Of a stretch of 64,000 nucleotides of DNA, positions 13,075 to 37,012 are shown one piece after another. How positions within the stretch are numbered: position 1 is the first letter of the stretch; each line of letters opens with the position of its first letter. Below the pieces are notes generated by a model. That model was not told the origin of the DNA. It saw only the letters and a list, made by a program, of their open reading frames with translations, and ran no database searches. A program made the translations under genes and the position numbers. The DNA lies in the sequence record OQ921332.1. The stretch is one strand, 5' to 3'. The DNA is from Escherichia phage vB_EcoP_PAS59.

Positions 13075-13273
13075 CAGGAGAAAATCAGTGAGAAAACGTG
13101 CCTACTCTGAAGAAGAAATGGTTAACTTGAAAGGCTTCGGTCAACGACAGCCTGACGGTTCAGTTATCTGGTACATTAACGGACAGAAAAAGGCAAGTAA
13201 ATAAGCCCTCTTCTCTCCTCCTTTTAACTACTATGACGCCTCTCTTTTCGGCGCTGTTTTGGAGCTTCAAAAA

Positions 13274-13687
13274 ATGGCTGGGAAATTCCCCAACGTAAGC
13301 AAGAAATTGGCTTACCTCACGTATAAAGAAAACATTGATCTTCTGGTCAAGCTTTATCCGGCTTCATTCAACAAGCAATTCCCTCTTCCTTTGGAGCTTA
13401 ACATCCATAAGGAAATAGCCCGTAAGACCGGTTGGTCAGCGGAGAAAACAAGCATGGTGCTCAACATCTGGACTACTCGTATGGAGTATGTGATGATGGC
13501 CTGTAGCACTGGTAAACGCTTCAAGCTGCACTCTGTAGCTATGAAGATTCGTAGCCCTATCGACCCTGAGCCGATGGCTGGGTTCAGTAGCCGTTTGAAA
13601 TCTTTCCGTGATCGTGGTCGTGTAGTGAAATTCAAGCATGACTTCTCTTACAAGTTTGGATACGAAGCGTTCCAATTTGTTGTTTAA
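13274..13687 (+). CDS. ProQ/FinO-domain RNA-binding protein (putative)
   Basis: internal ATG of ORF track 13259..13687; pattern YPASFNKQFPLPLELNIHKEIARKTGWSAEKTSMVLNIWTTRMEYV aligns with the E. coli ProQ N-terminal domain as recalled. Confidence 0.45.
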   Translation: MAGKFPNVSKKLAYLTYKENIDLLVKLYPASFNKQFPLPLELNIHKEIARKTGWSAEKTSMVLNIWTTRMEYVMMACSTGKRFKLHSVAMKIRSPIDPEPMAGFSSRLKSFRDRGRVVKFKHDFSYKFGYEAFQFVV

Positions 13688-14604: not shown

Positions 14605-14967
14605 ATGAACCTACGCCCCATTAAAGGCCATGTGAACCTGTCTACGCTTCATAAAGTAGCAAATGATTTAGGTGGTATGGATGAGAATGATTTGGAGCAG
14701 AATTTGCTCTGGATTGCTAATGGCATCAAGGCGGCAAAGGCCAAAATGGCTCGTGCACAAGGTAAACTAAAAGCGAATAAATATCTTATTCGTCGTCGTA
14801 ATGTCTTGCCTCAGGATGTGGTGAGTTTAGCTTTATCGGGATATAAAGCGGCAGAGTTAGAACTTCAGGAAGCTGAATTTGAAAAGATGCGCTTCCAAGA
14901 GAACTATCGAAACTTCCGTAGTATTGACTACATTCGCAAATCTCTGGGCCTTCTGGTATCAGAGTAA
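14605..14967 (+). CDS. hypothetical protein
   Basis: ORF track. Confidence 0.5.
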   Translation: MNLRPIKGHVNLSTLHKVANDLGGMDENDLEQNLLWIANGIKAAKAKMARAQGKLKANKYLIRRRNVLPQDVVSLALSGYKAAELELQEAEFEKMRFQENYRNFRSIDYIRKSLGLLVSE

Positions 14968-14977
14968 AGAGGTAAAA

Positions 14978-16195
14978 ATGTTCCCTGTAACACTTCAAAG
15001 CTGGAAAGAATCAGAAGACGTTGTAACTGTTTGGCCTCCTTGTTATGGTTTCCTGAAAGCAGGTTACTATCAGGGTGGTGATTATGATGAAGATGAAGAT
15101 GGTTATCCTGACTACTACAACGCATATGACAGCAATTTTGGCTGGAATATCCGTATTAAGGTGTGGAGTGAGGGTATGATGGTTCGTCAAGGCACTGCTG
15201 AAGAGAATGTTCTCGAAAACATGATGCCTATGTCCGAAATCAAGTACATCTGGAACTCTGGTACACACCTTCCCGCTTATGGTGTAAAACGTTATGGCGA
15301 TAAAGAGCCTATTACCACTCAGTATTTCCGCGAAGGGTTGGAGAATGGAGACCCTCGTCCTCCGTCTCATGTAGAAACATGGGCAGAAGAAAACAACCGT
15401 CCTGATATTACTGATCGCGCTGTAATGGAAACCTTTGAAGCATTCATGGATAAAGACCTCGATTCATGTCTGGTGTGGCATGAAGCAGGATTCATGGGTG
15501 TTTGTACTGATGGTTGTCCTGCTGATCGCGCTCTGTTCTATCTGATGCTGAATCGCACATTCTATACAGATGATGAAAAATCTGCTGTGTATGAAATGTT
15601 GAACAAGATGTATAAGAAGGGCTGGTCTCCTTTAGCCTCTCTTGCATTCAGCCGACTGATCAACTCTTCAGTGGATGTGTTCGGTAACGAACGTGTTGCT
15701 TTAACAGGGAATGATTACGATTCCTGTATCTTCCAAGCATCTCTGTATACAGTGGGTGTTGGCAGTACAATGGTTGAACCTCGCCAGACCAAGTGGCGAC
15801 AGTGTGAATACACCGAAGGTGAAGGGCATCTTCGTGATGAAGACTTCCCCAGTCTGCTCTACCGTAGTGAAGGTGTGCGAGACTGTCGAGTGAATAACTC
15901 AATGTTCTTACCAATCCTTCTTCCTCAGTATTGCAATCTGCCGAATGGTGAACGTCCGGTCATCACAGAGAAGTCACTCTTGGTTGAATTTATCCGAGAA
16001 GTAGCTGAATCTGAAACATCTTTTGATAAAATTGTGTTCGGTTATAACTGGAACAATGAAACAGCTTCAGCTCGAAGCTACAACACGTATAACATTATCA
16101 GTAGTATGTCCAATGGACTGACAGGTAGTAATTATACAGTACGTCCCTCAGAAGAGTGGGAAAACATTTTGGAAAAATTATTCTTCAATAAATAG
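14978..16195 (+). CDS. large acidic Trp/Tyr-rich protein of unknown function (first gene of the amide-ligase block)
   Basis: ORF track 14879..16195; ATG 14978 behind AAGAGG. Confidence 0.55.
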   Translation: MFPVTLQSWKESEDVVTVWPPCYGFLKAGYYQGGDYDEDEDGYPDYYNAYDSNFGWNIRIKVWSEGMMVRQGTAEENVLENMMPMSEIKYIWNSGTHLPAYGVKRYGDKEPITTQYFREGLENGDPRPPSHVETWAEENNRPDITDRAVMETFEAFMDKDLDSCLVWHEAGFMGVCTDGCPADRALFYLMLNRTFYTDDEKSAVYEMLNKMYKKGWSPLASLAFSRLINSSVDVFGNERVALTGNDYDSCIFQASLYTVGVGSTMVEPRQTKWRQCEYTEGEGHLRDEDFPSLLYRSEGVRDCRVNNSMFLPILLPQYCNLPNGERPVITEKSLLVEFIREVAESETSFDKIVFGYNWNNETASARSYNTYNIISSMSNGLTGSNYTVRPSEEWENILEKLFFNK

Positions 16196-16203
16196 AGGCG
16201 AAT

Positions 16204-17154
16204 ATGTCAATCTCCGCATCGATTGCTCCGGTAACACCGGCAGAGGATTTCGGTGAGTCAGTGTTTAAAGGAAGGGCTTGCTTTGGTACTTTTAACTGTA
16301 TGCACATGTACTCTGTTACAGACATTAATGGCGACAGTCTTAGACAAACAAACCTTCGTGATAGAACTTCAGAAATTGAAGTTATTAACTTCTGGCCTCA
16401 CAATTTTTATGGCGTACCGTCTAAAGATATCGAAAGAGCTTTAGTTGAAGCAACAGACATTTTTAACTCAATGTCTTGCTATAAAGATATGTTCTCTGTC
16501 ACTTCGGTGAACTCTATTGCCGTGAACCTTCGAAACCATCCAGCAGACAAGGTGTTTACTGGACTAATGACCATCCGTAGCTATTTGGATGGTGATTTTA
16601 ATGGAATGGAGTTCCTTCAGGAAGGCGTACAAGACAAGGAAGAGTTGCTTAAGCGACAACGAATCGGTTTAGCTCTACGCCTAGCTGGTTTAAGTCGTAA
16701 CTTCTTTGGTCGCTGGTGTTATAGTAATGACGTAGACTCAACTGATGAGTCAGCAGCGACTTATTTTGATGGTGACATGAGTGCAATTGCATTTCTGCCA
16801 CTAATTTGCACCACTGATGAATTTTCTGAAAACGTATGGGTTCAGAATGTGTTCGGTGTTGATGATAACCGAGATGGTTATGTACGAAACCATAATGATG
16901 GAGTTCTCCGTCGTATGGCACGTCGTCGTGACCAAGACCCTGACCATTATGAGAGTATGAGTGAGTGGTTGCGTCTCTGGTCAACTTGTGCAGGTCACAA
17001 GCGAGAAGTATTAGATCAGCGTATGGACAGAATTACTGTTCGCAGTTTTATTGAACGTCTGATGCAAGCAGTACCTTCCTCAATGACACCAGAAGAAGCT
17101 GGTGCCCGTGTTGTTTCCCTTTTTGATGAACTCGTGGAGTATTACAATGACTAA
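16204..17154 (+). CDS. protein of unknown function
   Basis: ORF track; stop overlaps next start. Confidence 0.55.
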   Translation: MSISASIAPVTPAEDFGESVFKGRACFGTFNCMHMYSVTDINGDSLRQTNLRDRTSEIEVINFWPHNFYGVPSKDIERALVEATDIFNSMSCYKDMFSVTSVNSIAVNLRNHPADKVFTGLMTIRSYLDGDFNGMEFLQEGVQDKEELLKRQRIGLALRLAGLSRNFFGRWCYSNDVDSTDESAATYFDGDMSAIAFLPLICTTDEFSENVWVQNVFGVDDNRDGYVRNHNDGVLRRMARRRDQDPDHYESMSEWLRLWSTCAGHKREVLDQRMDRITVRSFIERLMQAVPSSMTPEEAGARVVSLFDELVEYYND

Positions 17155-17953
17155 GCGCGCTTTCCTTATTGGCTCTGACCCTGAAATGTTTGTTCGTACT
17201 GCTTCCGGTATTATCACCTCTGTGGCTGGTAAGCTGGGCTGTTCTAAAGATAATAAAATTGATCTGGCTCCTGATGTTCGTCTTCAAGAAGACAACGTTC
17301 TGGCTGAATTCGATATTAACCCACAGAAAGGGTTTGAAGCGTTTGATGATAATATTCAGCGTGGTATTGATCTGACTAACAAAGTTCTCAATGAACGTGG
17401 CATGGAGGCAGCACTTGGGATTAGCTCTCATGTGTTCACTTCAGAAGAACTTGAATCATTCCACCCGTCAGCTTTTGTATTTGGCTGTACTCCTGATTTC
17501 AATGCCTTCACTGGACAAAAGAACCCTTCACCAGTCGCAACCGATAAGGGTTTGCGTACTGCTGGGGGTCATGTGCACCTTGGTGTCTCCGGGACTTTAG
17601 AGATTACTCGACAAACTCAAATGATGTTGGGTGTGTTATGTGATTACTTCCTGTCCTTGCCAGCTGTGATCATGGATAAAGACACTCGTCGTAAAGAGTT
17701 GTACGGAAAGGCTTCTGCCATTCGCTACAAAGATTACGGTATTGAATATCGTTCTCTTTCTAACTTCTGGATTGGTGATAAGTCCACTCGCAAGTTTGTT
17801 TACGAGCAAGTGGATAAGGTTGTTCAGGGTTGTGATATGGAAGTGTTGATGTCACTTCACTCTCGCCTTCCAATTGAAAAGCTTCATAACATCATCAACA
17901 GCAACGATGTTAAAGAAGCGGATAAATTCTCCTCTAAACTCCAGATTGTATAA
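17147..17953 (+). CDS. glutamine-synthetase/GCS-like carboxylate-amine ligase (amidoligase), putative
   Basis: internal ATG of ORF track 17102..17953; motifs GSDPEMF, GGHVHLG, GIEYRSL in the order of the E..E / H.H / E.R motifs of YbdK-type ligases. Confidence 0.4.
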   Translation: MTKRAFLIGSDPEMFVRTASGIITSVAGKLGCSKDNKIDLAPDVRLQEDNVLAEFDINPQKGFEAFDDNIQRGIDLTNKVLNERGMEAALGISSHVFTSEELESFHPSAFVFGCTPDFNAFTGQKNPSPVATDKGLRTAGGHVHLGVSGTLEITRQTQMMLGVLCDYFLSLPAVIMDKDTRRKELYGKASAIRYKDYGIEYRSLSNFWIGDKSTRKFVYEQVDKVVQGCDMEVLMSLHSRLPIEKLHNIINSNDVKEADKFSSKLQIV

Positions 17954-17962
17954 GGTGATATT

Positions 17963-18589
17963 GTGAGCTTGTTAAGAGATTTTCAACACTATTATTGTGG
18001 AACATGGATTGCTCAGCGATCACCTGATGGTAAAAACCTCCCTCTATATGTGCTTGATGTTCGTCAGCAAGGTAACTTTGATATCGACGACTACTCACAC
18101 GACGCTGAAAGGTCTTTAGTGTTTGAGGCGGAACGCTGGACTAAAAACTCTGAAGGTCAGTTTGAACGTCAGATTGTTAGTAATATCCCAGTGTTTGATC
18201 ACAGCCTCATTCTAGAGTCTCCAGATGTAGGATACCTTCAGCATGGTAATAACATGGTGAGCTGGACCCATATCAACCCTGTTCGTCAGCGAGCTAAAGG
18301 CTTGATGGGGAATAAACTTCGTGGTGCTGCACCTTCTCTCGGACGTTCGATTCCGGGTGATTTGGTGTACAACTTGTTTAATCCAGAGTTTGAAGGGTTG
18401 GTTACTCGTTTCATCTATATCAACCCTGTCGATGGAAAAGTGTATTACAAAGGGGCTTACGTTGGAAACGTGCTTCTTGAAGCTGGCTATGGCGACAACG
18501 GTCGCCAATCTTTAAACCTTCTGGAGAAGTTCAAGCACATTTCTTCAGACCTGTCATCATATAATGTAGAGTTGGTGGAATCACTATGA
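17963..18589 (+). CDS. protein of unknown function
   Basis: ORF track; RBS AAGGTGA. Confidence 0.5.
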   Translation: MSLLRDFQHYYCGTWIAQRSPDGKNLPLYVLDVRQQGNFDIDDYSHDAERSLVFEAERWTKNSEGQFERQIVSNIPVFDHSLILESPDVGYLQHGNNMVSWTHINPVRQRAKGLMGNKLRGAAPSLGRSIPGDLVYNLFNPEFEGLVTRFIYINPVDGKVYYKGAYVGNVLLEAGYGDNGRQSLNLLEKFKHISSDLSSYNVELVESL

Positions 18590-19686
18590 CAACCGTAGCA
18601 CAAGTTTTTGGATACCGTAACCCTCGCTTATCTGAACCGCATCCAAGCATTGCTTTTCAGTGTGGTGTTGGTATTGAGTTAGAAGTCGAAGGTACTACTG
18701 ACATTGACGTTGATATGTGGGTTTGTACTGAAGACGGCTCTCTTCGTGATGGTTGTGAGTTAGTGTGTTCACGACCTTACAACGGTGAAGAATTACTTCG
18801 TGCTATTAACAATCTGAGTGAAGCAGTACAGGATTCTGGAGCCGAGGGGACTTGGCGCTGCTCCACTCACGTTCATATGGATATGCGGGACGCTGATAGT
18901 AATATCCTTAAGAAAGTTATTCTTGGGTGGACGTTCTATGAAAAGATGATGTTCAAATGTTCTGGATATCATCGTTACCGTAGTAACTTCTGCCCAGCTT
19001 TTGCTGTTGTTCAAGCTCAAGTTATGAATGCTTCATCAGCGTTCAACCGAGATGGGGAAGATTTCTTCCGTACTCTTGTTAATAGCTGGGACAAGTATAC
19101 CTCCCTTAACCTGTTGCCTCTATCTCAGTTTGGTTCTGTTGAGTTTCGTATTTCAGAGCCGAAGTGGAAAAAGAGTCAGCTGCTAAATCTGGTCAATCGC
19201 TTCTTGGTTCTCAAGAAACTGGCTGTTGAATATGCAGATTTAGATAATGAAGCTTATGTTGAGAAGTTGAATGAGCTGCGCTTCGCTCCTATGATTCAAC
19301 ATCTACCTCTAGACTATACTCCAAGAGATAGCGATCTCACTGAAGGGTATCGTCTTGCCCGTGATATTCTGTTCTGTCGTGAGCAATCTGTAACTTTGGT
19401 TGGTCGTGTTCGTGTGCAACAGACTGGCCCTGATGGTGAAGTCCTTATCAACTTACGTGACATGAATGACTTCTATGGTTTCTTGGGATATGTGCGCGGT
19501 AATGCCAACACTGTCTATGAAGAGATCATGACCTACTACACCCCTCAGATTGAAAGCACTCGAATCGCAACGGTTCGTGAAATTCGTCACATGTTTGCAT
19601 TGATGCGTGAATCAGGTAGCAGTGATAATAACATCACTGATTACATTCCAGACCATCTGGAAATGCAATTAGAACGACTGCTGTAA
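18586..19686 (+). CDS. glutamine-synthetase/GCS-like carboxylate-amine ligase (amidoligase), putative
   Basis: ORF track; motifs GIELEVEG, CSTHVHMD, SVEFRISE. Confidence 0.45.
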   Translation: MTTVAQVFGYRNPRLSEPHPSIAFQCGVGIELEVEGTTDIDVDMWVCTEDGSLRDGCELVCSRPYNGEELLRAINNLSEAVQDSGAEGTWRCSTHVHMDMRDADSNILKKVILGWTFYEKMMFKCSGYHRYRSNFCPAFAVVQAQVMNASSAFNRDGEDFFRTLVNSWDKYTSLNLLPLSQFGSVEFRISEPKWKKSQLLNLVNRFLVLKKLAVEYADLDNEAYVEKLNELRFAPMIQHLPLDYTPRDSDLTEGYRLARDILFCREQSVTLVGRVRVQQTGPDGEVLINLRDMNDFYGFLGYVRGNANTVYEEIMTYYTPQIESTRIATVREIRHMFALMRESGSSDNNITDYIPDHLEMQLERLL

Positions 19687-19763
19687 CACAATGGGCGCTC
19701 TGATAAAGGGCGCATTTAAAGGTTAATTAGATGAAAGGGTTTACCCTTCAGGTGGATTAGAAA

Positions 19764-21797
19764 ATTTGTGGTATCGTATTAGCTGGCGGCAACATGACCT
19801 CAACAGATTTGGATATTTTCAACCAACTTCTGTATGCTGGTGTTTTCCGTGGACAGCACTCAACTGGTGTGTTTGGTCAGCGTAAAGGTGAAAAGCAAGT
19901 CTTCTCTTATAAAGAAGCTCTTCCTTCTTATGCTTTTATGCTCCAGACAGAATATACAAATATTACCAAAGGGCTTACGAACTACGTAGTTCCTCCTTCG
20001 TGGATTGTTGGTCACAGCCGACATGCCACTCGTGGGGCTGTCAATGCTCGAAATGCTCACCCATTTACTCACGGGGATATTACTCTGGTTCATAATGGAA
20101 CCCTGTTAGATCAAGATCTCCTTCCTGACAGTAAGCGTTTCGAAGTTGATAGTGAAAACATCTGCCACTCAATTAATACCATTGGAGCAGCAGAGACTAT
20201 CCAAAAACTGGATGGTGCATTCACTTTGATTTGGCATGATGCTAAAGACAACACGCTTCACATTATCCGTAATGATGAGCGTCCTTTCCACCTAGCCCGT
20301 TGTGGTTTAGATTGGTTTGGGGCTTCTGAAGAAGCTATGCTTATGTGGATTTTAGAGCGTTCTAAATCCCACAAGAACCGTATCAATGACCACTTCGAAT
20401 GTAAAGTGGGAACTGAGTATATCTTTGATGTGTCTAACAGTCGTATGACTCTGGTTCAAGAGGTGGAGCACAAGCTTCCGGTTTTTACGATAACGAGTCG
20501 CTGGGGCGGCTATTACTCGAACTCCTCTCTATATCAGAACCGACAGACAAACAAATCAAGCAGCAGCACAAGCGACATTTACGGAAACAAAGACGACAAG
20601 CCCGGCGTGACAAGCGGAGACATTCGTCGTCGTAAAGCGATTGAAGACCAGAACAAACTGGCTGCCGATCGTGGTCTTCCTTATCGTCGTGATGGTCGTG
20701 TGGATATTATTCCTCACGAGTTCCATGCTTATAACAACACAGATCGTGGTAAGATGGTTGGTTACATCTACGACGATAAAGCCCAAGAGTATGTCGAAGG
20801 GGATGTTCACAACGTAGCCAAAGATGAATATCTTAAGGCTCTTGAAAACCCAAAGGTAGTATATCGCGGGACGATTGCTTGTATCTCCGAAGTGGACAGT
20901 ATGATTCGCCTCGTACTAACTTCAGGGCTGTTTGTTGATGCTACAGATAAGGAGCCTCAAAGCACTACTGCTGATTTTGATGATGATATCCCTTTTGATG
21001 CAGAGGACTCCTTCATCACTAAAAATGGTGTAGAAGTCACTCGTAAGTTCTGGGAATCTCACTCTCATGGAGATTGTGGTGGCTGTGATAAGCACATTGA
21101 CTGGAAAGATGCTCGTAAGGCTGTGTTTGCTTACCAAGCGTACTGGCATCCAGAATGCTTCGAAGCGTTGTCTAAAACCTCTGAAGAGGAAGAAGACGTA
21201 CCTTTGGGTGTATGTGCTGTCTGTGGTGAAGTCAAGACTGATTTCGAGTTTGACAACGAAATGAGTAAACTTCGTGGTGAAGATATTTGTTATATCTGCT
21301 CCAAAGAAATCAAAGATAAAGTAAAAAATGTTACTCTGTCTGAAGGTTATATTTGGACTAAAGCAGTAGACACAACTAATCCGCGTCGTCCTGAAGTGGC
21401 TGTTCGTGTTGATGAACGTATGCTTAGCCGTATGATTGTAATGGTCAGCTCAGCAAAACGTTCAGGGGATATTACACTCGCAGATGTTCCTAACTCATAT
21501 TTGGAAAAACGTGGTGGCGATACTTATGCCATTTCCGTTTACGGTCCAAAGAATGCCCCAAAGGAGGTACCCGCTGAGAAAGCGGAGACATTTCCAGAAA
21601 AATCAACCTCTCTCCGAAAAACAGTTGTCAGTTATGACGGACAACGAACAGCTGAGTTCACAAAAGCCCTCTGGACTTCAATTGGGTTTTGTGCAGTCTG
21701 TTATAAACAAATTCCGTGGCGTGATGCAGAAACTTGCTCACTAAACAAAGAAAATAGAGTGATCTGTAATTCAGATTACTGTAAAGGTAAACACTAA
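19764..21797 (+). CDS. class-II (Ntn) glutamine amidotransferase with Cys-rich C-terminal extension; start proposed at ATT 19764
   Basis: ORF track gives 19794..21797, but the in-frame codons just upstream encode (I)CGIVLAGGN, the canonical N-terminal Cys of PurF/GlmS-type amidotransferases; RGQ motif; C-terminal CxxC clusters. Confidence 0.5.
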   Translation: MCGIVLAGGNMTSTDLDIFNQLLYAGVFRGQHSTGVFGQRKGEKQVFSYKEALPSYAFMLQTEYTNITKGLTNYVVPPSWIVGHSRHATRGAVNARNAHPFTHGDITLVHNGTLLDQDLLPDSKRFEVDSENICHSINTIGAAETIQKLDGAFTLIWHDAKDNTLHIIRNDERPFHLARCGLDWFGASEEAMLMWILERSKSHKNRINDHFECKVGTEYIFDVSNSRMTLVQEVEHKLPVFTITSRWGGYYSNSSLYQNRQTNKSSSSTSDIYGNKDDKPGVTSGDIRRRKAIEDQNKLAADRGLPYRRDGRVDIIPHEFHAYNNTDRGKMVGYIYDDKAQEYVEGDVHNVAKDEYLKALENPKVVYRGTIACISEVDSMIRLVLTSGLFVDATDKEPQSTTADFDDDIPFDAEDSFITKNGVEVTRKFWESHSHGDCGGCDKHIDWKDARKAVFAYQAYWHPECFEALSKTSEEEEDVPLGVCAVCGEVKTDFEFDNEMSKLRGEDICYICSKEIKDKVKNVTLSEGYIWTKAVDTTNPRRPEVAVRVDERMLSRMIVMVSSAKRSGDITLADVPNSYLEKRGGDTYAISVYGPKNAPKEVPAEKAETFPEKSTSLRKTVVSYDGQRTAEFTKALWTSIGFCAVCYKQIPWRDAETCSLNKENRVICNSDYCKGKH

Positions 21798-21808
21798 GAG
21801 GTATAGTT

Positions 21809-22042
21809 ATGGAAGTTCGTAAACTGATGTTGGATAACGTGGTAACTACCCGTCGTATTCCGATGACAAGCACAGGATGTGATAACCTCCGAGCAATTCA
21901 GAAGTGGATGCAAGAAGGTATTGGGAAGCTGGTTGACTCTCCAGTAGAAATCCCTTTTCCAACCGTTATCAATAACGTGTTGGCTGACTATGTTAAAATG
22001 AAGGGGATTAAAGTTGAGCCTCATGTCAAGCAAGGGAGCTAA
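21809..22042 (+). CDS. hypothetical small protein
   Basis: ORF track. Confidence 0.35.
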   Translation: MEVRKLMLDNVVTTRRIPMTSTGCDNLRAIQKWMQEGIGKLVDSPVEIPFPTVINNVLADYVKMKGIKVEPHVKQGS

Positions 22043-22244
22043 GCCTCACCTGACAATGCTGGAGTATCAACAACTCCGACTTCAACAACTGGTAACGGAG
22101 CAGCGAAAGCTGTATCCGTTTGCTTTTAACTTAATCGACTCTCCAAGTGATGCCCAAGAAGACGAAATGTTCGCCGAGTATTGGGCAATCGAAGCTAAAA
22201 TTCAATCCTGTCGTAACGAAATTCTTAAACTAAAAGGTATCTAA
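22014..22244 (+). CDS. hypothetical small protein
   Basis: ORF track. Confidence 0.3.
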   Translation: MSLMSSKGAKPHLTMLEYQQLRLQQLVTEQRKLYPFAFNLIDSPSDAQEDEMFAEYWAIEAKIQSCRNEILKLKGI

Positions 22245-22246
22245 AA

Positions 22247-23494
22247 ATGACTACTCGTATCCGTGTTCTTCCGTATGGCCCGTCTGATTCTGTTAACGCT
22301 CTGGTATCTGCTATCAGTGATACTATCCGTGATGAACGTATCAACGCTAACATAATGGGTCTTCTTTCAGAGAACAGTCGCTGGCGTTCTCGTGAGGATG
22401 ATGTGGTTGTGAACTACGGGAACCGTCGCTATCCTGAATCCTTCTTTGGTTCTGCAACTGTCCTTAACCGTACCGCAGCCTTACATATGGCAGCGAACAA
22501 ACGTCGTGCTTTCAGCGTGATGGACCAAGCAGGTGTTAAAACTGTTGAGTATACAGATGTTCAAGAGATTGCTCAGGAGTGGTCAAACTCTGGCAACATT
22601 GTGTATGAACGTCATGAACTGACTGGTCACTCTGGTTCGGGTATCGTTGTTGTTGAGCCTCGTGATTCAATTGGTCAAGCTGAACTGTACACCAAAGGTA
22701 TTCAAGGTCCACGTCGTGAATGGCGTGTCCATGTGTTCAAAGGTGTTATCACCTATGTTCAGAAGAAGATTCGTCGTAACGGCTATCGTGAAGACCCTAA
22801 CTATCGTGAAGATGTTCGTAACCATCACACTGGTTGGGTTTACTCAAGTTCCTTCACAGACGCTCCAAATGATGCATCTCTGATCAACGCAGTGAAGGCC
22901 GTTGAATCGATGGGTCTGGATTTTGGTGCAGTTGATATCATTACCAAAGGCCGAGAAGCATGGGTACTGGAAGTTAACACAGCACCGGGCCTGACTGGTA
23001 CAACTCTGGATATCTACCGTCACAACATCCTTGAGTTTGTTAAAGCTCAAAATCCTCTCTATACTCCTCAGTATAAAGTGGGTTACCAGACTCCTGTTGA
23101 AGCTCCAATCGAAGACGGAGATGGAGAGTTGGTAGATGACAGCGAAAGCGCTAATGATGAAAACTTTGCACTGGAAGGTCAGGTAGCACAGCCGGTTGAG
23201 TTGGTAGATGTAGTTCCTGAAGAGATGCAACTGGAAGGTCAGATGAATACTCAAACTATTCGTAATGCACCTACTGGTTACACTTTATCTCGTGGTTATT
23301 GGATTGCAGATATCCGTCATGTCCATAACAACCTGCAACCGAATGCAATGTCTTCCAATGTCATTTTGTTCTGTGATGGTCGTAACTTCTACCGTAGTGG
23401 CTGGAACGTTCCGGTCAATCCAGTCCAGATTCATAACCCTCGCAAGTTAGAATCTGTCAATGTTGAAGGTAGCGAAGTAGCAGTAACTCTGTAA
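22247..23494 (+). CDS. ATP-grasp ligase (RimK-like) with acidic C-terminal extension
   Basis: ORF track; ERHELTGHSGSGIVVVEP, EWRVHVFKG, DFGAVDII...WVLEVNTAPG. Confidence 0.55.
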   Translation: MTTRIRVLPYGPSDSVNALVSAISDTIRDERINANIMGLLSENSRWRSREDDVVVNYGNRRYPESFFGSATVLNRTAALHMAANKRRAFSVMDQAGVKTVEYTDVQEIAQEWSNSGNIVYERHELTGHSGSGIVVVEPRDSIGQAELYTKGIQGPRREWRVHVFKGVITYVQKKIRRNGYREDPNYREDVRNHHTGWVYSSSFTDAPNDASLINAVKAVESMGLDFGAVDIITKGREAWVLEVNTAPGLTGTTLDIYRHNILEFVKAQNPLYTPQYKVGYQTPVEAPIEDGDGELVDDSESANDENFALEGQVAQPVELVDVVPEEMQLEGQMNTQTIRNAPTGYTLSRGYWIADIRHVHNNLQPNAMSSNVILFCDGRNFYRSGWNVPVNPVQIHNPRKLESVNVEGSEVAVTL

Positions 23495-23520
23495 TTAAAT
23501 TAAACAAAAAGGAATTTGTA

Positions 23521-23763
23521 ATGTTGTCTATCGAAGATTTGATCAGCCGTGGAATGACCGAAGAAAAAGAGCCTCTGATTGTAGGCTCTCGTAAAGCTAT
23601 CAACCAACTCTGTGAAGAGTTCGGTATCACAAATAAGAGAATGATTGGTAATCAGTTCTCTGCAATCATCACCTTCCTCAAACGAGGTGATAAATATTCA
23701 ATGGAAAGTGCTGAGCGTATCATCGCAATTGCACAAGCAGATAAGGGAGTAACAAGTCTGTGA
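23521..23763 (+). CDS. hypothetical small protein
   Basis: ORF track. Confidence 0.4.
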   Translation: MLSIEDLISRGMTEEKEPLIVGSRKAINQLCEEFGITNKRMIGNQFSAIITFLKRGDKYSMESAERIIAIAQADKGVTSL

Positions 23764-23945
23764 ATAAATATACAATCATGTTTCGTACAGTAACATCAGA
23801 AGGGAATATTCAATCTCTGGATATTCAAGCAGACCGCTTTGAATCACTTGGAACAAATGTCAATTTCTTCCGAGGCGCAGAGCTAGTAGGTACGTTCCAA
23901 TCTGATGTATTAACTGGTGTGATCAAACACTTCGAAGTAGAATAA
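23760..23945 (+). CDS. hypothetical small protein
   Basis: ORF track; followed by hairpin AGCCTC...GAGGCT. Confidence 0.4.
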   Translation: MNKYTIMFRTVTSEGNIQSLDIQADRFESLGTNVNFFRGAELVGTFQSDVLTGVIKHFEVE

Positions 23946-24011
23946 TTTGCTTTAGCCTCTTCGAAAGAGGAGGCTAGTTCGAATTTAACTGAAACACTAA
24001 AAGGTAATATA

Positions 24012-24443
24012 ATGTCTGATAAAGTACTAGTTGCAACTTACGGAAGCTTGAGAAAAGGTCAACACAACCACGCTATCAATGCTCGTGCAGGTGGTGTGTC
24101 TATTGGTGAAGGGTGGACAGTAAACAACTGTAACCTGTATCAGTATTGCACAGCATACTTCCCAAGTGTATCTTTGGAGCATGACAGCAATGGTAAGCCT
24201 GTTCGTGTAGAAGTCTTTGAAACAACCCAAGCTGGTCTGGAAGGTCCGTATGACGGTCTGGAAGGTCATCGTGGTAATGATAACCCATACACCTTTTATA
24301 AGCGTACACTGATTCCAGTATTATTGGACAGCGGTGAAACTGTGGAAGCGTGGATTTATCACATCGACGAAGAACAAGATGTTCTGGTTGAATCGGGTGA
24401 CTGGACAGCATATCTGGCAGGTGAGAAGGATGACAGTAACTGA
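24012..24443 (+). CDS. gamma-glutamyl cyclotransferase-like (GGCT/AIG2 fold) protein
   Basis: ORF track; N-terminal YGSLRKG motif. Confidence 0.5.
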   Translation: MSDKVLVATYGSLRKGQHNHAINARAGGVSIGEGWTVNNCNLYQYCTAYFPSVSLEHDSNGKPVRVEVFETTQAGLEGPYDGLEGHRGNDNPYTFYKRTLIPVLLDSGETVEAWIYHIDEEQDVLVESGDWTAYLAGEKDDSN

Positions 24444-24671: not shown

Positions 24672-26462
24672 ATGTCAAAGATCATTTTGGGAGACACAGG
24701 CTGTAAAGAGTGCATCTCTCATGGTCGTGATAAGACCCATAATCACATGATTCTCTTCCGAAATGAAGAGTCCGGTGAGGAGTGGGGTTCATGTAACAGA
24801 TGTGGTGCGTATGAAATCTTCGAGAAAGGAACGACGCCCACTCCTAATGAAAAGAAAGAGCTGTCCCCTGAAGAACTTCGAGAAGTCTTAGACGATTGCT
24901 TAGAGCTTCCTCAGGGAGAGTTGACTCGTCGCTTAATCCCTAAAGCTGTGTCTGAACGCTATGGATGCCGTATTGGTTTAAGTCAAACAGACGGTCAAAC
25001 TCCTGACAGCTACTTCTTCCCTCGTGAACGTGATGGGAATATTGTTGGATATGAAGTAAAACTTCTAGACAGCAAGAAATTCTATTATGTAGGTAATGTG
25101 AAAGAAGCCGACTTATTTGGTATGGCTCAAGCACAACGTGGTGACGTATACAACAAGAAACTCTTCATCTTTGAAGATCCTCTCTCTTGTATGTCTGGGT
25201 TCCACGTACTTACCGCGTTTACAAACGCAACTAACATCAAACCTGCTTGCGTCTCTCTTCCGTTCGGTGCAGGTTCAATCTCTTCTGTCTTATCAAGAAA
25301 CCGTGATTTTATTAATGGTTTCGAGGAGATTGTACTCTGCATGGACAATGATGATGCAGGTGAGATTGCTTTAACTAAGGGTCGTTCTCTGTACCCGCAT
25401 GTTAAGTTTTCAAGGATTCCAAAAGGTACGTTCACTTATAACGGACAAGAAAAGGAAATCAAAGATGCAAACGACATGTTACTGGCAGGGAGAGGTCAAG
25501 AGCTTTTCAATAATCTTAAGTATTCAGCTAAGCGGGAATCTCCTGCTGGAGCTGTTACAGTTTTTGATTGCCTCGAAGATGCTCTGAAGAAAGCGGAATG
25601 GGGTATTCCTTATCCGTGGAAAACTCTTAACGACATGACCTTTGGTATTCGTTGGGGAGAGATGGTTGCAATCGGCGGTGGTGTTGGTTCAGGTAAAACC
25701 TTAATCGCACACGAACTGGTAGCATGGCTTTGCCTTGAGCATGGTTTTAATGGTGGTGGCTTCTTCTTGGAAGAGAAGGTAGGCATGTCTGTTAAGAACA
25801 TTGCTGGTAAGTCTGCATCTGTTCCATTTCACCGACCAGATGTTGAGTATGAAGAAAGCCAGCTACGAGATGAAGCACTTCGATACGCTGATAAGTTTTT
25901 CTTATACGACAACTTTGGACAGAATGAGTGGGAAGACATTAAGCAGTGTATTCGCTTTTGGGTAGTTGAGAATCAATGTAAGTTTATCATCCTTGATAAC
26001 ATCACTGCATTGGTATCTCACTTAACTCCATCCGAAGTGAATACAGAAATCAGTAAGATTGCTTCAGAGCTTGCTGGTATGTGTAAGGAATTAGACTTCA
26101 CTGCTTTTGTGTTATCTCACTTGAATGCTCCGGCGGGCGGTGCCCCTCACGAAGAAGGTGGTCAGGTTAAAGAAGTACAGTTTACTGGCTCACGTTCATT
26201 AATGCGCTGGTGTCAATGTATTATCGGTTTCGAACGTAATAAACAAGCGGATGGGTTAGGTAAAAACTTGTCAATCATACGTCTGCTCAAAGAGCGTAAC
26301 TATGGACAGACGGGGGTTTGCTATACCAAATATATTAACGAAACAGGTCGTCTTGTAGAACGAGAAGATCATGAAGTTGATGAAGATAATCCGTTTACAG
26401 TCACCAACGGAGAAGATGCAGCTTCCTTACTCTCACAAGAAGGGGAGGCGCGTCCGTGGTAA
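24672..26462 (+). CDS. T7 gp4-like primase-helicase
   Basis: ORF track; RBS AGGAGG; zinc ribbon CKEC...CNRC; Walker [10 protein letters not shown]. Confidence 0.85.
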
Positions 26463-27004
26463 AGAAACTGTATGCGTTTGATATTGAAGGTGATAACCTC
26501 TATGACGGTATTCAGAATGTCTGGTGTATATGGATATTTGATGTACTGTCTGGAGAACGGTGGGGGTATCGCCCTCACCAAATTGAAGAAGCACTACACA
26601 AACTGAAAGAAGCTGATGTAGTAATAGGTCACAATATTATTGATTTTGACCTTCCTGCTTTGTTTAAATTCTATTCTCATGTGATACCTTTTCGTTTTAA
26701 TGTCTTTGATACTCTGTGCCTGAGTCGATACCTCAAGCCTGACCGTATTGGTGACAGTCCAGAATACCCCAAAGGCGACCCTAGACATGGCCCTCGCGGT
26801 CATGGCCTCAAGCAATGGGGTGAATTTCTGGGAGAGCTGAAGGGTGATTATGGTGAACAGGAAGAAGCATGGGACGCATTCACTGAAGACATGTTCACAT
26901 ATTGTGAGCAAGACGTTAACTTGACAGTTAAGGTTTACATGTGTCTTTGCCAAATGGCAGGATTTGATTATAAGAATCCCCCATCTCTCAACTGGAAAAT
27001 GTAG
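26456..27004 (+). CDS. family-A DNA polymerase, N-terminal 3'-5' exonuclease domain (separate ORF)
   Basis: ORF track; Exo I motif FDIEG; [38 protein letters not shown] align with T7 gp5 residues ~1-190 as recalled; ends at a stop. Confidence 0.8.
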
Positions 27005-27006
27005 AA

Positions 27007-28479
27007 ATGATTAAGATTCCATTATCTGAATTGAACCTTCAAGAAGGAGAAGCCCTCAGTGTAGGGCTTGACCTGATTCGTAATTTGATCAGAGATAACG
27101 TAGTCCCTGATGGCATCTATCCTGTTATTGCAGGTGGTGCTATCCGTGATACGTTCTTTCAAAATAGAACTCCGAATGATGTTGATATCTTCCTAGTTCA
27201 AGGAGGATTACGTTGGAACGCTCGTCAGGAAAATAGCCCTGCTAACGTAGGTAATGCTGCACTTTTCCTTGACAACTTCTTATCTTGGACAGAAAGTAAA
27301 GGGCTTCAGGTTACATCTCGACTAATTCAGCCTGTTAACGGGACAACCTATGCTGAAGCGCTTTTCACTTTCCAAGAGATTCTGGAAATCGAGATTGATC
27401 AAGTTAAAATCCAGATGATGATTAATCTACCTTTGGATATGGATACTTTAAGCCGTCGCTTCCCTATGATCTGTCAAGGGTTTATGACTCTTGGTAATCT
27501 GTATGTGTCAAACGAAGGTTTGTTTGCAATGTCATACACTCGTGACATTCCTGTGGTGTCCAGTCGTGAAATGAAGTATGTTCACAAGAAGTGGCCTGAA
27601 GCAACTGTTGCAGTTTATAGCAGTTCTACCGAATATATGCACCTTGCAATGGGAGCTTTCGGTGAGCCAGAAGTTCACCTGATTAGTGATTTAGTTGGAC
27701 CTATGGCTGGTGTAAATTTATATCAGAATCAGCGTCGTCATTATACCCTGAAGATGATGGAAACTACATTAAACATTCCTCAGGAAAGGGGTCGTAGTTA
27801 TCTGGACGAGGAAGTTAACCTACAGACAGAATGGTCTAGTGGATTAACCACTATAGGTGCTGAAGCAATTACACGACCTTGGACTCCGGGAACTAACAGA
27901 CGAGATCTTCAAGCTTTTAATGAAGAAACTTCTCGAACTGTTCGAGGAGGTGTTGTAGGGTATAACGTACAACCTCATGAAAGACCTCGTGATACTTTCA
28001 CTGGTAGTTTTGGTAGTGCACACTCTTCTGGAATGGATACTCGTACATGGCATGTCCAAGGAGGAACTGCTCGTCCTATTCCCTCTCCGTCAATGGATGA
28101 TTTGCAGCGTTCTCGTCGTTCATGGGAAACAGTAAGCTCTGTTGTTCAGGGTCTACGTGCTAGTGATATTGAACGTGTAGAAGTTGGTGATTTGCCAACC
28201 TCTACAGAAGATCGAGTATCAGCTATAGCGGCTCGTGAAGCTGCTCATATTGGTTTTGCATCATTAGCTAATGACGCTAACGAAGCTCCTCGACCTGTTG
28301 GTCGTCGTAATGGTCTAGCTCACTCTGACACTGCACTTGGTGCAGAACTACGAGCAGCAGCTCGTGAGCTATCTGGTGAGCTTCACAACAACCTGGCAGG
28401 TGTTACACTATCTCGTGAAACAGCTCGTAATATGATTAATAATTTGGCATCATCTGTACAAGGAAACAGAAACTCATGA
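27007..28479 (+). CDS. Pol-beta superfamily nucleotidyltransferase (CCA-adding/poly(A) polymerase-like head) with low-complexity C-terminal half
   Basis: ORF track; GGAIRDTFFQNRTPNDVDIF matches the GGxVRD...DxD signature. Confidence 0.5.
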   Translation: MIKIPLSELNLQEGEALSVGLDLIRNLIRDNVVPDGIYPVIAGGAIRDTFFQNRTPNDVDIFLVQGGLRWNARQENSPANVGNAALFLDNFLSWTESKGLQVTSRLIQPVNGTTYAEALFTFQEILEIEIDQVKIQMMINLPLDMDTLSRRFPMICQGFMTLGNLYVSNEGLFAMSYTRDIPVVSSREMKYVHKKWPEATVAVYSSSTEYMHLAMGAFGEPEVHLISDLVGPMAGVNLYQNQRRHYTLKMMETTLNIPQERGRSYLDEEVNLQTEWSSGLTTIGAEAITRPWTPGTNRRDLQAFNEETSRTVRGGVVGYNVQPHERPRDTFTGSFGSAHSSGMDTRTWHVQGGTARPIPSPSMDDLQRSRRSWETVSSVVQGLRASDIERVEVGDLPTSTEDRVSAIAAREAAHIGFASLANDANEAPRPVGRRNGLAHSDTALGAELRAAARELSGELHNNLAGVTLSRETARNMINNLASSVQGNRNS

Positions 28480-29009
28480 GTCTTTTAGGTTCTCAAGAAT
28501 TACACAGCGTTATTGATAATGGCTTTTTAGATGCGGAGCATAAATATGTTAACGCTGCTAGTGTGGATATCCGTATTGGTGATACTATCCTTGTTGAAGA
28601 GCAGGCTGATGGTATTGTTGACATTGATGCTAAAGAAAACCTCAAGTGGAAAGAAGTAAAAATCCCTGAAGATGGTATCGTTATCACTCCGGGACAGTTC
28701 TTCTTAGCTCACTCAATGGAAGAGTTTAACCTTCCAGACAATATTTCAAGTCTGTTTGTACTCCGCTCCTCAATGGCTCGTTGTGGTTTAAACCATCTCC
28801 ATGCTGGTTGGGCTGATGCAGGGTTTAATAACAGTAAGCTGACCTTTGAGTTCCATAACGTTACTCACAATCACAGCTTACGAGTTCGTGCTGGGATGCG
28901 TGTCGGTCAAATGGTTATGTTTGAACACTCTCACGCTGGTGATGATTCCTATGCAGTGAAGGGTCGTTATAACAACTCCGATGGGGTTGTTGCTTCTAAA
29001 GGTGTATAA
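28476..29009 (+). CDS. dcd: dCTP deaminase / dUTPase-superfamily protein
   Basis: ORF track; AASVDIRIGD and RSSMARCGL resemble Dcd motifs. Confidence 0.6.
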   Translation: MSLLGSQELHSVIDNGFLDAEHKYVNAASVDIRIGDTILVEEQADGIVDIDAKENLKWKEVKIPEDGIVITPGQFFLAHSMEEFNLPDNISSLFVLRSSMARCGLNHLHAGWADAGFNNSKLTFEFHNVTHNHSLRVRAGMRVGQMVMFEHSHAGDDSYAVKGRYNNSDGVVASKGV

Positions 29010-31309: not shown

Positions 31310-31801
31310 ATGAATAATATTGACCCGTCAATAAAAGAAGCTCTTGATTACGACCCTTTGACTGGAGATTTCCGATGGGTTAAAACTTATGGAAAAGGAC
31401 ACAAAGGGTCTATAGCTGGTTCTGTAAATACCAATGGGTATTTGAGAATCGTTTATAAAGGTGCTAGATACTACGCTCATCGACTTGCTTACTGGTGGGA
31501 CACTGGATTGCTTCCTGAAGAAGTAGATCACATAGACCGCAACAGGATAAACAACAAAAGAGAGAATCTTAGGGGGACTACTAGATCAGGAAATGGCCTA
31601 AACAAAGTAGCTCAGAGTAATAATTTATCAACCGGAGTGATTGGAGTGACTGTCCATAGAAGGAAAAGTGGCTCTATTGCTTACCGGGCGGTATTTAAAT
31701 CTAAGCACATAGGACTCTTCTCAACCATAGAAGAAGCCTCTAGGGAATATAATAAAGTCAAGGAGACTTACATAAATGACAATCAAAGCTTCATTAATTG
31801 A
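31310..31801 (+). CDS. HNH homing endonuclease (HNH + AP2-like)
   Basis: ORF track; AHRLAYWWDTGLLPEEVDHIDRNRINNKRENLR; paralogous to 42242, 45226, 46618; overlaps ThyX start. Confidence 0.7.
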   Translation: MNNIDPSIKEALDYDPLTGDFRWVKTYGKGHKGSIAGSVNTNGYLRIVYKGARYYAHRLAYWWDTGLLPEEVDHIDRNRINNKRENLRGTTRSGNGLNKVAQSNNLSTGVIGVTVHRRKSGSIAYRAVFKSKHIGLFSTIEEASREYNKVKETYINDNQSFIN

Positions 31802-35274: not shown

Positions 35275-35290
35275 CTATAAGGAGTGGGTG

Positions 35291-37012
35291 ATGGATAACC
35301 CTGATAAGTTACCTTTCATAACGGAGATGACAGTCGCTGATATAATCTCAAAACAGGCGAAGCATGGAGTCAACTTCAACAGAAGAAACGCTCGGTGGTT
35401 TGTTCATCTTCTCAAAGAGATTATTGTCAATATTGATAAAGAACTGATTCCTCTCCTCCCCAAAATGCGGGTGGATGGTTCAACTTATTCTAAACCTTTT
35501 AAGAAATCAGGTGCTTTACAGAAGTGGCCTCAGCTCTATTGCGATAGGGTTGGTCTTAAAAGAGAAGATATCGGTGGGGCGTTTACTTGCGTTGAGTATG
35601 TAGATTTTGACCCATCAAAAGATGCACGTATTAAAGAAGCCTTGATGGATGAAGGTTTTATACCTCCAGAGTGGAATTATTCTAAGAAACCTTGGAATAC
35701 TTTTGAAATTCGTAAAGCTATGAAGAAGTATGGTACATACTCTGCATGGTATTCTGCTTGGATTCGAGGTAACGCTAAAGAGAAACAGACAGCAGAGATG
35801 ATAGATGCTGATATCCGAAGGTTTTTGGATAAGCACTTCCGTTATCACACTGTCAATTATATGAAAGCCTATGTCAGCGGTTTAGGTCTTAACCCTAACA
35901 GGAAGAAGCCTGTAACCTTTGATGAAATCAAAAAAGCTTTGGCTACATCAAACAAGTGGCCTACAGCCCCTACAAACCTTGAGGAGACTCTTGAAGAGGG
36001 GCTTGGGGGTGAACTAGGGGGTGTAGGAAGTTTGCTTAAGAGACGCGTTGTAGCGGCTCACAGGCTAGGTTTGATTAGCGGGCTTATCGACAAGGAACGT
36101 AAAGATGGTAAACTGTCCGCCGAAGCTAATAGCTGCGCTACTCCGACATTTCGTTTTAAACATCGCATTGTTGTTAATATTCCTTCTCGCGGTTTGTTTG
36201 GTCACGAGTGCCGCAGTCTTTTTCAATCTGACTATTCCTCAGACGATAGTCATAACCATCCTTTCATCATTACCAACCATATCCCTGATGGGTGTTACGT
36301 ACGAAAGGGTACTAACATTATCTACGAAATGGGAAAACCGGGCAAGAAAGACAAACCAATAGGTGCTTATAAATTTTATGTACCTGCTGGTCGTGAAGTC
36401 TTCTTAGGTTATGATGGCTCTGGTCTTGAGCTGAGGATGCTTGCTCATTACCTTATCAAAGAGTGTCGTGAGATGCTCGCTGAAGCAGAGCGGGAAAACA
36501 ACCCAGCTAAGAAACGGGAAGCTGAACGCGGTCTAGCTTCTGCTGTTATGTACAGAGATATTCTTTTAGAAGGGGATATTCACTCACATAACCAAAAACT
36601 TGCTGGCCTTCCTACTCGTGATAATGCTAAAACGTTTATCTACGCATTCAACTACGGAGCTGGTGACGCTAAGTTAGGAAGCATCGTAGGTGGTGGCTCT
36701 GATGAAGGGGCTGTCATGAGGGCAAGATTCTTAGCAGAGAATCCTTGTATTGCAATTCTTATTGAACGTATGACAGAGAAAGCACAAAGTGGATACATCT
36801 ACGGTGTGGATGGACGTCGTATTACAATGAGGAGGGATGCAACTGGAAAGGTTATGGTTCATAAAGCCTTAAACACCCTCTTACAGAGCGCTGGGGCGAT
36901 TGTTATGAAGTATGCAATGCTATTCCTTAATAAATGGATTGAGCGTGATGGTGTTCGTTGTGCGAAGGTTATTGACATGCATAAACTTCATTGTGCATGT
37001 AAAAGTTGGTGA
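35291..37012 (+). CDS. family-A DNA polymerase, polymerase domain (separate ORF, ~8.3 kb downstream of the exonuclease ORF)
   Basis: ORF track 35288..37012; motif A GYDGSGLELRMLAHY; motif B RDNAKTFIYAFNYGAG; NTLLQSAGA; collinear with T7 gp5 from about residue 200. Confidence 0.85.
   Translation: MDNPDKLPFITEMTVADIISKQAKHGVNFNRRNARWFVHLLKEIIVNIDKELIPLLPKMRVDGSTYSKPFKKSGALQKWPQLYCDRVGLKREDIGGAFTCVEYVDFDPSKDARIKEALMDEGFIPPEWNYSKKPWNTFEIRKAMKKYGTYSAWYSAWIRGNAKEKQTAEMIDADIRRFLDKHFRYHTVNYMKAYVSGLGLNPNRKKPVTFDEIKKALATSNKWPTAPTNLEETLEEGLGGELGGVGSLLKRRVVAAHRLGLISGLIDKERKDGKLSAEANSCATPTFRFKHRIVVNIPSRGLFGHECRSLFQSDYSSDDSHNHPFIITNHIPDGCYVRKGTNIIYEMGKPGKKDKPIGAYKFYVPAGREVFLGYDGSGLELRMLAHYLIKECREMLAEAERENNPAKKREAERGLASAVMYRDILLEGDIHSHNQKLAGLPTRDNAKTFIYAFNYGAGDAKLGSIVGGGSDEGAVMRARFLAENPCIAILIERMTEKAQSGYIYGVDGRRITMRRDATGKVMVHKALNTLLQSAGAIVMKYAMLFLNKWIERDGVRCAKVIDMHKLHCACKSW

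Follow-up and report, generated by a model that had tools for sequence, protein, structure and literature searches.

We have analysed a 64,000-nucleotide stretch of DNA from Escherichia phage vB_EcoP_PAS59 (sequence record OQ921332.1), here called the window, with attention to the nucleotidyltransferase gene at positions 27007 to 28479. The product of this gene is a 'head-only', lineage-specific protein from the class II branch of the Pol-beta nucleotidyltransferases, the branch of the CCA-adding enzymes and the bacterial poly(A) polymerases. It has a class II-type head and, judged by its motifs and domains, is neither a CCA-adding enzyme nor PcnB (poly(A) polymerase I, PAP I). We judge it an even chance that it is an active template-independent terminal nucleotidyltransferase that does not add CCA. 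The phage is a phiEco32-like podophage of the subfamily Gordonclarkvirinae, of Suseptimavirus type, and the DNA of this region is 95% identical to that of Escherichia phages E20-1 and EK010, and 94% to that of SU7. The gene has the following parts, where aa denotes amino acids, NTP nucleoside triphosphate and dN/dS the ratio of nonsynonymous to synonymous substitution rates.

27007..28479, + strand: the whole nucleotidyltransferase open reading frame (ORF), with an ATG start and 490 aa plus stop; ortholog of phiEco32 gp73 and SU10 gp74.
27007..27816, + strand: folded N-terminal domain (aa 1-270), the class-II-type nucleotidyltransferase head, with a conserved core (aa 1-205) and a helical subdomain (aa 206-270).
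27133..27186, + strand: motif A (aa 43-60), GGAIRD-x9-DVD with G43, G44, R47, D48, D58 and D60 (GGAIRDTFFQNRTPNDVD); start of the NTP-binding helix and two metal-binding aspartates.
27376..27378, + strand: E124, the probable third catalytic carboxylate, on the beta-strand adjoining the DxD strand (strand E122-130 of the model).
27460..27474, + strand: F152-P153-x-x-C156, the putative equivalent of class II motif B (RRDFTINA), placed through an hhalign chain.
27577..27597, + strand: Y191-V-H-K194-K195-W-P197, the family signature helix (R[DE]xxYxxKKxP) at the site of the class II motif D helix.
27901..27984, + strand: hypervariable linker (aa 299-326), in which close relatives differ by in-frame indels; dN/dS of 0.62.
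27985..28476, + strand: conserved part of the tail (aa 327-490), predicted to be disordered or weakly helical, Arg-rich and without lysine; the last 35 aa are nearly invariant.

An earlier note on this DNA, made from the letters without database searches, had described an ORF with a GGAIRD...DVD signature between an exonuclease ORF and a dCTP deaminase gene, and had assigned its N-terminal part to the class II enzymes. The ORF is indeed at that place, and the family assignment holds, the protein being a Pol-beta-superfamily nucleotidyltransferase with conserved catalytic carboxylates. Motif A is the only match to GG[AGSC][VILP]RD-x6-14-DxD in the six frames of the window, where about 2e-4 would be expected by chance. 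Conservation was assessed over 25 clusters of the family, each 21-29% identical to the window protein. Motif A is invariant in all 25, and the full set of invariant residues comprises G43, G44, R47, D48, D58, D60, F62, Y115, I125, Q136, P153, Y191 and K195. Position 124 is D or E in every cluster, as is position 188. E127 was also considered as the third carboxylate, and was rejected because it is kept in only 12 of the 25 clusters. The family is small; an exhaustive hidden Markov model (HMM) search of 1.84 billion cluster representatives gave 31 clusters at E ≤ 1e-10. Judged from its sequence, the two-metal active site (D58, D60 and E124) is intact, together with the GGxxRD NTP-binding element. 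The strong constraint on this site, with E124 as its probable third ligand, and on the start of the NTP-binding helix indicates that the protein should be an active enzyme.

The predicted structure points to the same branch. A full-length AlphaFold2 (AF2) model was poor because of the tail, with a mean predicted local distance difference test score (pLDDT) of 52.9 and values below 50 over aa 267-490. Modelling aa 1-270 again with an alignment of 39 sequences gave pLDDT of 90.3 and a predicted template modelling score (pTM) of 0.88. In the family, aa 206-270 form a small helical subdomain of its own kind. Foldseek ranked CCA-adding enzymes first even with the full-length model, with marginal scores. 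The structure-based homology search that the earlier note had proposed places class II enzymes at the top, the best matches again being CCA-adding enzymes. About 145-163 of the 270 residues superpose on class II structures, and these are the head domain. Scores fall to ≤8.1 for Rel, TENT5, TUT4, CD-NTases, OAS1 and Pol X, below those of the class II enzymes. The modelled domain has a Pol-beta-type head fold in the comparisons with the CCA-adding enzyme and with PcnB alike.

By contrast with the structural ranking, direct sequence comparison reaches little beyond motif A. The window protein has no match in Pfam at E up to 1, including the PolyA_pol head PF01743, against which a phiEco32-type ortholog scores 18.8 bits, under the cut-off of 23. 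There is none in NCBIfam at E up to 0.1, including the PcnB models TIGR01942 and PRK11623. Searches of PDB sequences with the single sequence and with the family profile gave nothing significant, the CCA-adding enzymes appearing at E values of 0.27-0.5 through 21 residues of motif A only. With hhalign the family profile aligns to Escherichia coli CCA over 25 columns, motif A only, and to E. coli PAP I over 21 columns with a probability of 3%. When the full protein or aa 1-285 served as the query, word-indexed homolog searches went no further than relatives with at least 83% identity along the whole length; more distant ones were reached via a three-genus profile and the exhaustive HMM search. 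The connection to class II can be followed in steps. The family profile aligns to a group of small phage nucleotidyltransferases (mini-NTases) over 183 columns (hhalign probability 99.5%, E = 1.9e-22), and these in turn can be aligned with the E. coli enzymes, CCA at 85.5% and PAP I at 92.4%, motif B and the helix of motif D staying in register. The motif equivalences given here rest on these chains and on the order of the secondary-structure elements, not on superposition with solved complexes.

Beyond motif A, several class II elements are lost or replaced. In the chain alignment the RRDLTIN/RRDFTIN of E. coli CCA and PAP corresponds to FDxxIC of the mini-NTases and to F152-P153-x-x-C156 here. 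In 25/25 clusters P153 thus takes the place of the motif B Asp, the residue through which class II enzymes contact the ribose of an incoming NTP. The Arg pair that the window protein does have (R150/R151) is not conserved, being confined to its own clade and present in 2/25 and 5/25 clusters. Helix 186-195 of the model, where motif D would be expected, reads R-E-M-K-Y-V-H-K-K. Reading the sequence directly, there is no [ED]DxxR within aa 1-285 that could serve as the EDxxR template. One candidate in the tail, DDLQR at aa 364-368, fits [EDG]DxxR, but is not conserved in phiEco32 or EP335 and would arise by chance at an estimated 0.2 per tail, and we rejected it. The class II catalytic core is defined by motifs A-E, and the Asp and Arg of EDxxR are irreplaceable under in vivo selection (PMC11784652). 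The helical neck, body and tail domains that hold the acceptor and T arm of tRNA are missing as well, judging from the lack of any Pfam domain and the pLDDT below 50 over aa 267-490. Without EDxxR, the motif B ribose sensor and the tRNA-binding domains, canonical selection of C, C and A and canonical recognition of tRNA would not be possible. Loss of the ribose sensor may also have removed discrimination between ribo- and deoxyribonucleotides.

These losses bear on the possibility that the protein repairs tRNA 3' ends (by CCA, CC or A addition) to counter host nucleases acting on them, a role that the earlier note had linked to the tRNA of the phage. The phage does have a tRNA gene as the note said, a single tRNA-Arg(TCT) at 10110-10185 on the + strand (ARAGORN), and the CCA-adding enzymes are the best structural matches. 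Yet the 3' end of that tRNA reads ...GGGTGC-A-CCA in the genome, so its CCA is encoded, and the E. coli host has its own cca gene. Set beside the missing EDxxR, the invariant Pro at the motif B Asp and the absent body and tail domains, and with no match to phrog_2244, the separate PHROG of full-length phage tRNA nucleotidyltransferases, this makes genuine tRNA repair improbable, and the proposed link to the phage tRNA finds no support.

With the class II tRNA nucleotidyltransferases (PDB 3h37, 1ou5, 1miv and 4wby) the phage protein shares GGxxRD...DxD of motif A and a third acidic residue on the neighbouring strand, and through the region of motifs B and C its secondary-structure elements follow one another as they do in those enzymes. 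It differs in that direct sequence likeness extends over only about 21 residues, in the loss of RRD from motif B, in the absence of EDxxR, and in having a disordered Arg-rich tail where those enzymes have the neck, body and tail helices. PcnB (PDB 3aql) likewise has a class II catalytic head joined to a C-terminal region, which in PAP I is basic, poorly ordered and needed for RNA binding. The phage protein nevertheless lacks a match to the NCBIfam PcnB models as well as the neck and body, and only 21 columns align. Its tail is unrelated in sequence to the PcnB C-terminal region; it is Arg-rich and net neutral here, and basic (isoelectric point, pI, 10-11.7) in several relatives of intermediate length. 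A stand-alone protein with the head domain of a CCA enzyme, NP_344798.1 (PDB 2la3), is a far weaker structural match than the full-length class II enzymes; it has no tail, and its PDB entry calls it uncharacterised.

Closer in sequence are the mini-NTases (about 170-230 aa; phrog_1614, 4400, 7967 and 10174), which are homologous over the whole catalytic core. They were found as Foldseek matches in BFVD, by the exhaustive HMM search at E values of 5e-8 to 8e-4 and through PHROG cross-hits, and they occur in Pectobacterium, Ralstonia and Caulobacter Autographiviridae, LUZ24-like phages and LKD16. Both groups have the motifs IQxM, F[DP]xxC and YxxK..K[FYW]P, and the genes of both are located in podophage replication modules. 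The mini-NTase genes are near the primase/helicase and DNA polymerase genes in Caulobacter KSC, Ralstonia BOESR1 and Pectobacterium phages (Autographiviridae), and next to an exonuclease gene in a LUZ24-like phage. The Gordonclarkvirinae family differs in having a PHROG of its own (12715), Pro in place of Asp at motif B, a lysine-poor tail of 70-290 aa, and a core gene fixed in position beside dCTP deaminase. No dCTP deaminase gene was found near the mini-NTase genes at the Autographiviridae (KSC, BOESR1 and Pectobacterium) and LUZ24-like loci examined. The earlier note had called placement within the replication operon unusual. Since mini-enzymes of this kind recur in the replication modules of other podophages, the placement is typical for the superfamily.

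The mini-NTases also suggest another kind of acceptor. The protein might nucleotidylate a protein or a small molecule, in an AMPylation-type takeover of the host or counter-defence, or it might make or destroy a nucleotide signal. In T7 the stretch from primase/helicase to polymerase holds accessory and anti-defence genes, and the T7-like mini-NTase genes are among the small genes between primase/helicase and DNA polymerase. Their distribution is patchy and linked to the host, with 37 of 46 Pectobacterium Autographiviridae and only 60 of >500 others having one (PMC7693777). In Gordonclarkvirinae, however, the gene is core and not accessory, and no PADLOC defence-system model matches the window protein. 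CD-NTases and minimal nucleotidyltransferases use the GS form of motif A, while GGxxRD is the class II form, and in the fold search these groups rank clearly below the class II enzymes. We therefore consider this role unlikely.

The head is followed by a 220-aa tail (aa 271-490) that is Arg-rich, lysine-free and predicted to be largely disordered, and that is under purifying selection. We compared eight genes of Suseptimavirus type by alignment. Nearly every close relative has different insertions or deletions in the linker, giving protein lengths of 461-490 aa, with both flanks conserved. All eight keep the reading frame through several such in-frame indels, so the tail is real coding sequence. 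The dN/dS is 0.10 in the catalytic core, 0.27 over aa 327-490 and 0.18 in the last 35 aa, against 0.62 in the linker. The description of this region as rich in Ser, Arg, Ala and Gly is borne out, these being the commonest residues of aa 286-490 (R 11.7%, A 11.2%, S 10.2%, G 8.8%; together 42%). The accompanying term low-complexity is overstated; the entropy in 40-aa windows is 3.53 bits in the tail against 3.80 bits in the N-terminal part, and most of the C-terminal region is conserved among close relatives.

The 205 residues of aa 286-490 include 24 Arg and no Lys. Within 27598-28476 the window protein has a lysine-free run of 241 residues, for which the probability is about 1e-6 at the phage-wide Lys content of 5.6%. 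Between genera the tails can scarcely be aligned, yet they share this composition. In the 25 clusters taken together, the roughly 3,380 residues that follow the Y..KK.P motif include 17 Lys and 292 Arg. Basic tails (pI 10-11.7) are common among the shorter relatives, as are aromatic residues at the C-terminus. We infer that the tail serves for binding, its ligand being either a polyanion or a partner protein. Only three other ORFs of the window are comparably poor in lysine, two 'DNA ejection proteins' (phrog_4287, with runs of 187 and 141 aa) and a 'membrane protein' (phrog_1265, with a run of 306 aa).

53392-54363, 54822-55874 and 56694-57728, - strand: the three other lysine-poor ORFs, that of phrog_1265 lying in the structural module.

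Directly upstream of the primase/helicase gene the window has a cluster of phiEco32 type (14879-24443), with genes for a COOH-NH2 ligase (PF14395), Amidoligase_2, a class II glutamine amidotransferase, a RimK-like ATP-grasp protein and GGACT (gamma-glutamyl cyclotransferase), together with several ORFs of unassigned function. We considered whether the lysine-free tail is an escape from this amidoligase/ATP-grasp/GGACT system. That explanation was rejected. Escherichia phage PJNS034, introduced below, keeps most of the amidoligase cluster in the absence of the nucleotidyltransferase, and so the tail and the system are not tied; within the cluster of PJNS034 there was no match for Amidoligase_2. 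In viromes, amidoligases and amidotransferases co-occur with thymidine hypermodification genes (PMC8989533). No match of the 5-HMUDK or aGPT-Pplase type was seen among the window ORFs scanned.

The surroundings of the gene are as follows.

24672..26462: primase/helicase, upstream of the exonuclease ORF.
26456..27004, + strand: upstream neighbour, a DnaQ/PolA-type 3'-5' exonuclease subunit of 182 aa (PF01612, 24.2 bits; phrog_38876, 2.6e-67).
28476..29009, + strand: downstream neighbour, dCTP deaminase (PF22769, 1.1e-34; TIGR02274 above its cut-off).
35288-37012: DNA polymerase domain ORF (PF00476), 8.3 kb downstream.

The exonuclease stop codon is 2 nt before the nucleotidyltransferase ATG (TAG-aa-ATG at 27002-27009), and the start of dCTP deaminase overlaps the nucleotidyltransferase stop (ATGA at 28476-28479). 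Judged by these junctions, translation of the gene is coupled to that of the PolA exonuclease subunit on one side and of dCTP deaminase on the other. The family A DNA polymerase is divided between two genes that are 8.3 kb apart, one for the exonuclease and one for the polymerase, and the nucleotidyltransferase gene is inside the 8-kb nucleotide-metabolism block that separates them, whose genes include those for dCTP deaminase, a Dps-like protein, thioredoxin, HNH, ThyX and PhoH. The HNH homing-endonuclease-like ORF (31310-31801, + strand), named after the annotation of the syntenic Bas86 gene, lies in the interval from thioredoxin to ThyX, and overlaps the start of the latter gene at 31776. 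At this locus synteny is broken only by insertions of homing endonucleases (PMC11990801). Scans for promoters, terminators and the phiEco32-type promoter motif were uninformative. Elsewhere in the window, a 142-aa ORF at 13259-13687 on the + strand has a ProQ/FinO RNA-chaperone domain (PF04352, 27.2 bits, at the gathering score).

The gene and its position are strongly maintained. Among 50,697 phage records, tblastn detected it in 97, each of an Escherichia or Shigella phage, and a primase/helicase at least 60% identical to that of the window is present in exactly 97 records. The equal counts, which compare totals and not the lists record by record, suggest that no cultured member of the lineage lacks it. 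On this sequence survey the gene belongs to the core of Gordonclarkvirinae. In phiEco32 and EP335 the genes follow one another as GGACT - primase/helicase - exonuclease - nucleotidyltransferase - dCTP deaminase ... thioredoxin - ThyX, and so they do in metagenomic relatives in which the enzyme is only 23-29% identical. Fixed in all 97 cultured Gordonclarkvirinae and over such distances, the position is again not the oddity that the earlier note took it to be.

The nearest outgroup is PJNS034, with a primase/helicase 54% identical to that of the window. It retains the exonuclease subunit (46%) and PolA (43%) together with the primase/helicase. Covering the whole PJNS034 genome except 761 bp, tblastn and a family HMM search detected neither a nucleotidyltransferase nor dCTP deaminase, Dps, thioredoxin, ThyX or PhoH, and about 3 kb of small ORFs are found between its two polymerase genes. 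In this one comparison the nucleotidyltransferase gene appears to travel with the nucleotide-metabolism block. The split polymerase evidently works without it.

This result bears on a non-catalytic role, in which the protein would be a structural factor of the split polymerase and replisome, its tail docking on replisome proteins and its fold a relic. The coupling to the exonuclease subunit would suit such a role, and the aromatic C-terminus of many family members recalls the C-terminal tails of T7 gp2.5 and gp4. The tail of this phage, however, ends in neither an acidic nor an aromatic motif, PJNS034 has the same split exonuclease and polymerase without the gene, and all the catalytic residues are invariant across relatives only 21-29% identical. 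A purely structural function is highly improbable. Nor do we think that the enzyme is packaged in virions. One peptide of the ortholog SU10 gp74 was found by mass spectrometry (PMC4281155), but it came from a phage preparation made with polyethylene glycol (PEG) only, which also held other early enzymes.

A further possibility is that the nucleotidyltransferase works with dCTP deaminase in nucleotide or DNA metabolism, as part of a novel pathway of covalent DNA modification or of DNA 3'-end tailing. The BASEL II paper reported that Gordonclarkvirinae strongly resist restriction-modification systems without known modification or anti-restriction genes, and for this reason it named the dCTP deaminase and nucleotidyltransferase pair as a possible route of DNA modification (PMC11990801). 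Sites for EcoRI (15 observed, 20 expected), EcoRV (21 and 20), EcoKI (5 and 6) and EcoP1 (110 and 99) occur in the window at the expected frequency, so that site avoidance does not explain resistance to these enzymes. The overlap of the nucleotidyltransferase stop with the dCTP deaminase start is consistent with joint action, as is the common absence from PJNS034 of the nucleotidyltransferase, dCTP deaminase, ThyX, thioredoxin and Dps, all missing while the replication genes are kept. Loss of the motif B Asp would fit the use of deoxynucleoside triphosphates (dNTPs). On the other side, dCTP deaminase and ThyX together make an ordinary route of dTTP supply, the T7-like mini-NTases occur without dCTP deaminase, the co-absence in PJNS034 is a single comparison, and no modification has been shown in these phages. 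Nor are we aware of a pathway of DNA modification in which a nucleotidyltransferase of class II type takes part. Cooperation of the two enzymes in this general sense is possible, if on the unlikely side. It is more doubtful that the coupled pair forms a novel DNA-altering pathway (deoxynucleotide or base modification, or non-templated 3'-end tailing) that underlies the restriction resistance.

Other short sequences deviate from expectation in the 64-kb window. CCWGG (Dcm/EcoRII) is nearly absent (2 against 71 expected), GGATCC and CTGCAG are absent (10 expected each), and GATC is halved (125 against 237). There is a strong excess of GAAGA/TCTTC (346 against 138) and CAGCAG/CTGCTG (73 against 21), which may be codon and strand bias.

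The function that we favour remains terminal transfer by an active, template-independent enzyme other than a CCA-adding one. Nucleotides would be moved from NTPs or dNTPs, without a template, onto the 3'-OH of a polynucleotide, and the tail would supply binding of the substrate or of a partner in place of the body and tail domains. To our knowledge, all characterised class II enzymes carry out template-independent nucleotide transfer to a polynucleotide 3'-OH. Several points weigh against this assignment. The polynucleotide acceptor is proposed solely by analogy with the behaviour of class II enzymes. With a net charge of -10 and a pI of 4.7 the catalytic domain is acidic, and in this phage the tail carries no net charge, so that a basic surface for binding nucleic acid is not evident; the head and neck of E. 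coli CCA are equally acidic. The mapping of motif D to helix 186-195 at the level of residues has low confidence in hhalign. By gene content, the protein has closer ties with dCTP deaminase and ThyX than with the replisome or with RNA functions. Finally, the literature searched on the family and on the mini-NTases gives annotations and hypotheses only, with no measured activity.

At the level of the family the annotation is already known. The gene is called a nucleotidyltransferase in RefSeq, in the BASEL records and in PHROGs, where phrog_12715, the nucleotidyltransferase of Gordonclarkvirinae type, matches it end to end (E = 4e-163, aa 1-483 on profile positions 1-456 of 457), and our analysis chiefly confirms and refines database annotation. 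New here are the head-only architecture with its specific motif losses, the lysine-free tail under selection, the core status and fixed position of the gene, the relation to a broader group of mini-enzymes from the replication modules of podophages, and the comparison with PJNS034 that separates the gene from the replisome. Head-only class II nucleotidyltransferases recur in the replication regions of several podophage groups. Gordonclarkvirinae are the single case in which the gene is core and fixed in position, and they offer a tractable entry, as phages of the group are available on E. coli K-12 (BASEL Bas86-93) and their restriction resistance is unexplained. The identity of the acceptor and of the nucleotide would distinguish between CCA/PAP-type chemistry used for RNA tailing, chemistry on DNA ends or bases, and counter-defence. 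The finding is of modest importance unless the DNA-directed explanation is true. If the gene does belong to a DNA-altering pathway, class II nucleotidyltransferases would gain a DNA-directed role, perhaps including the mini-enzymes of T7-like replication modules.

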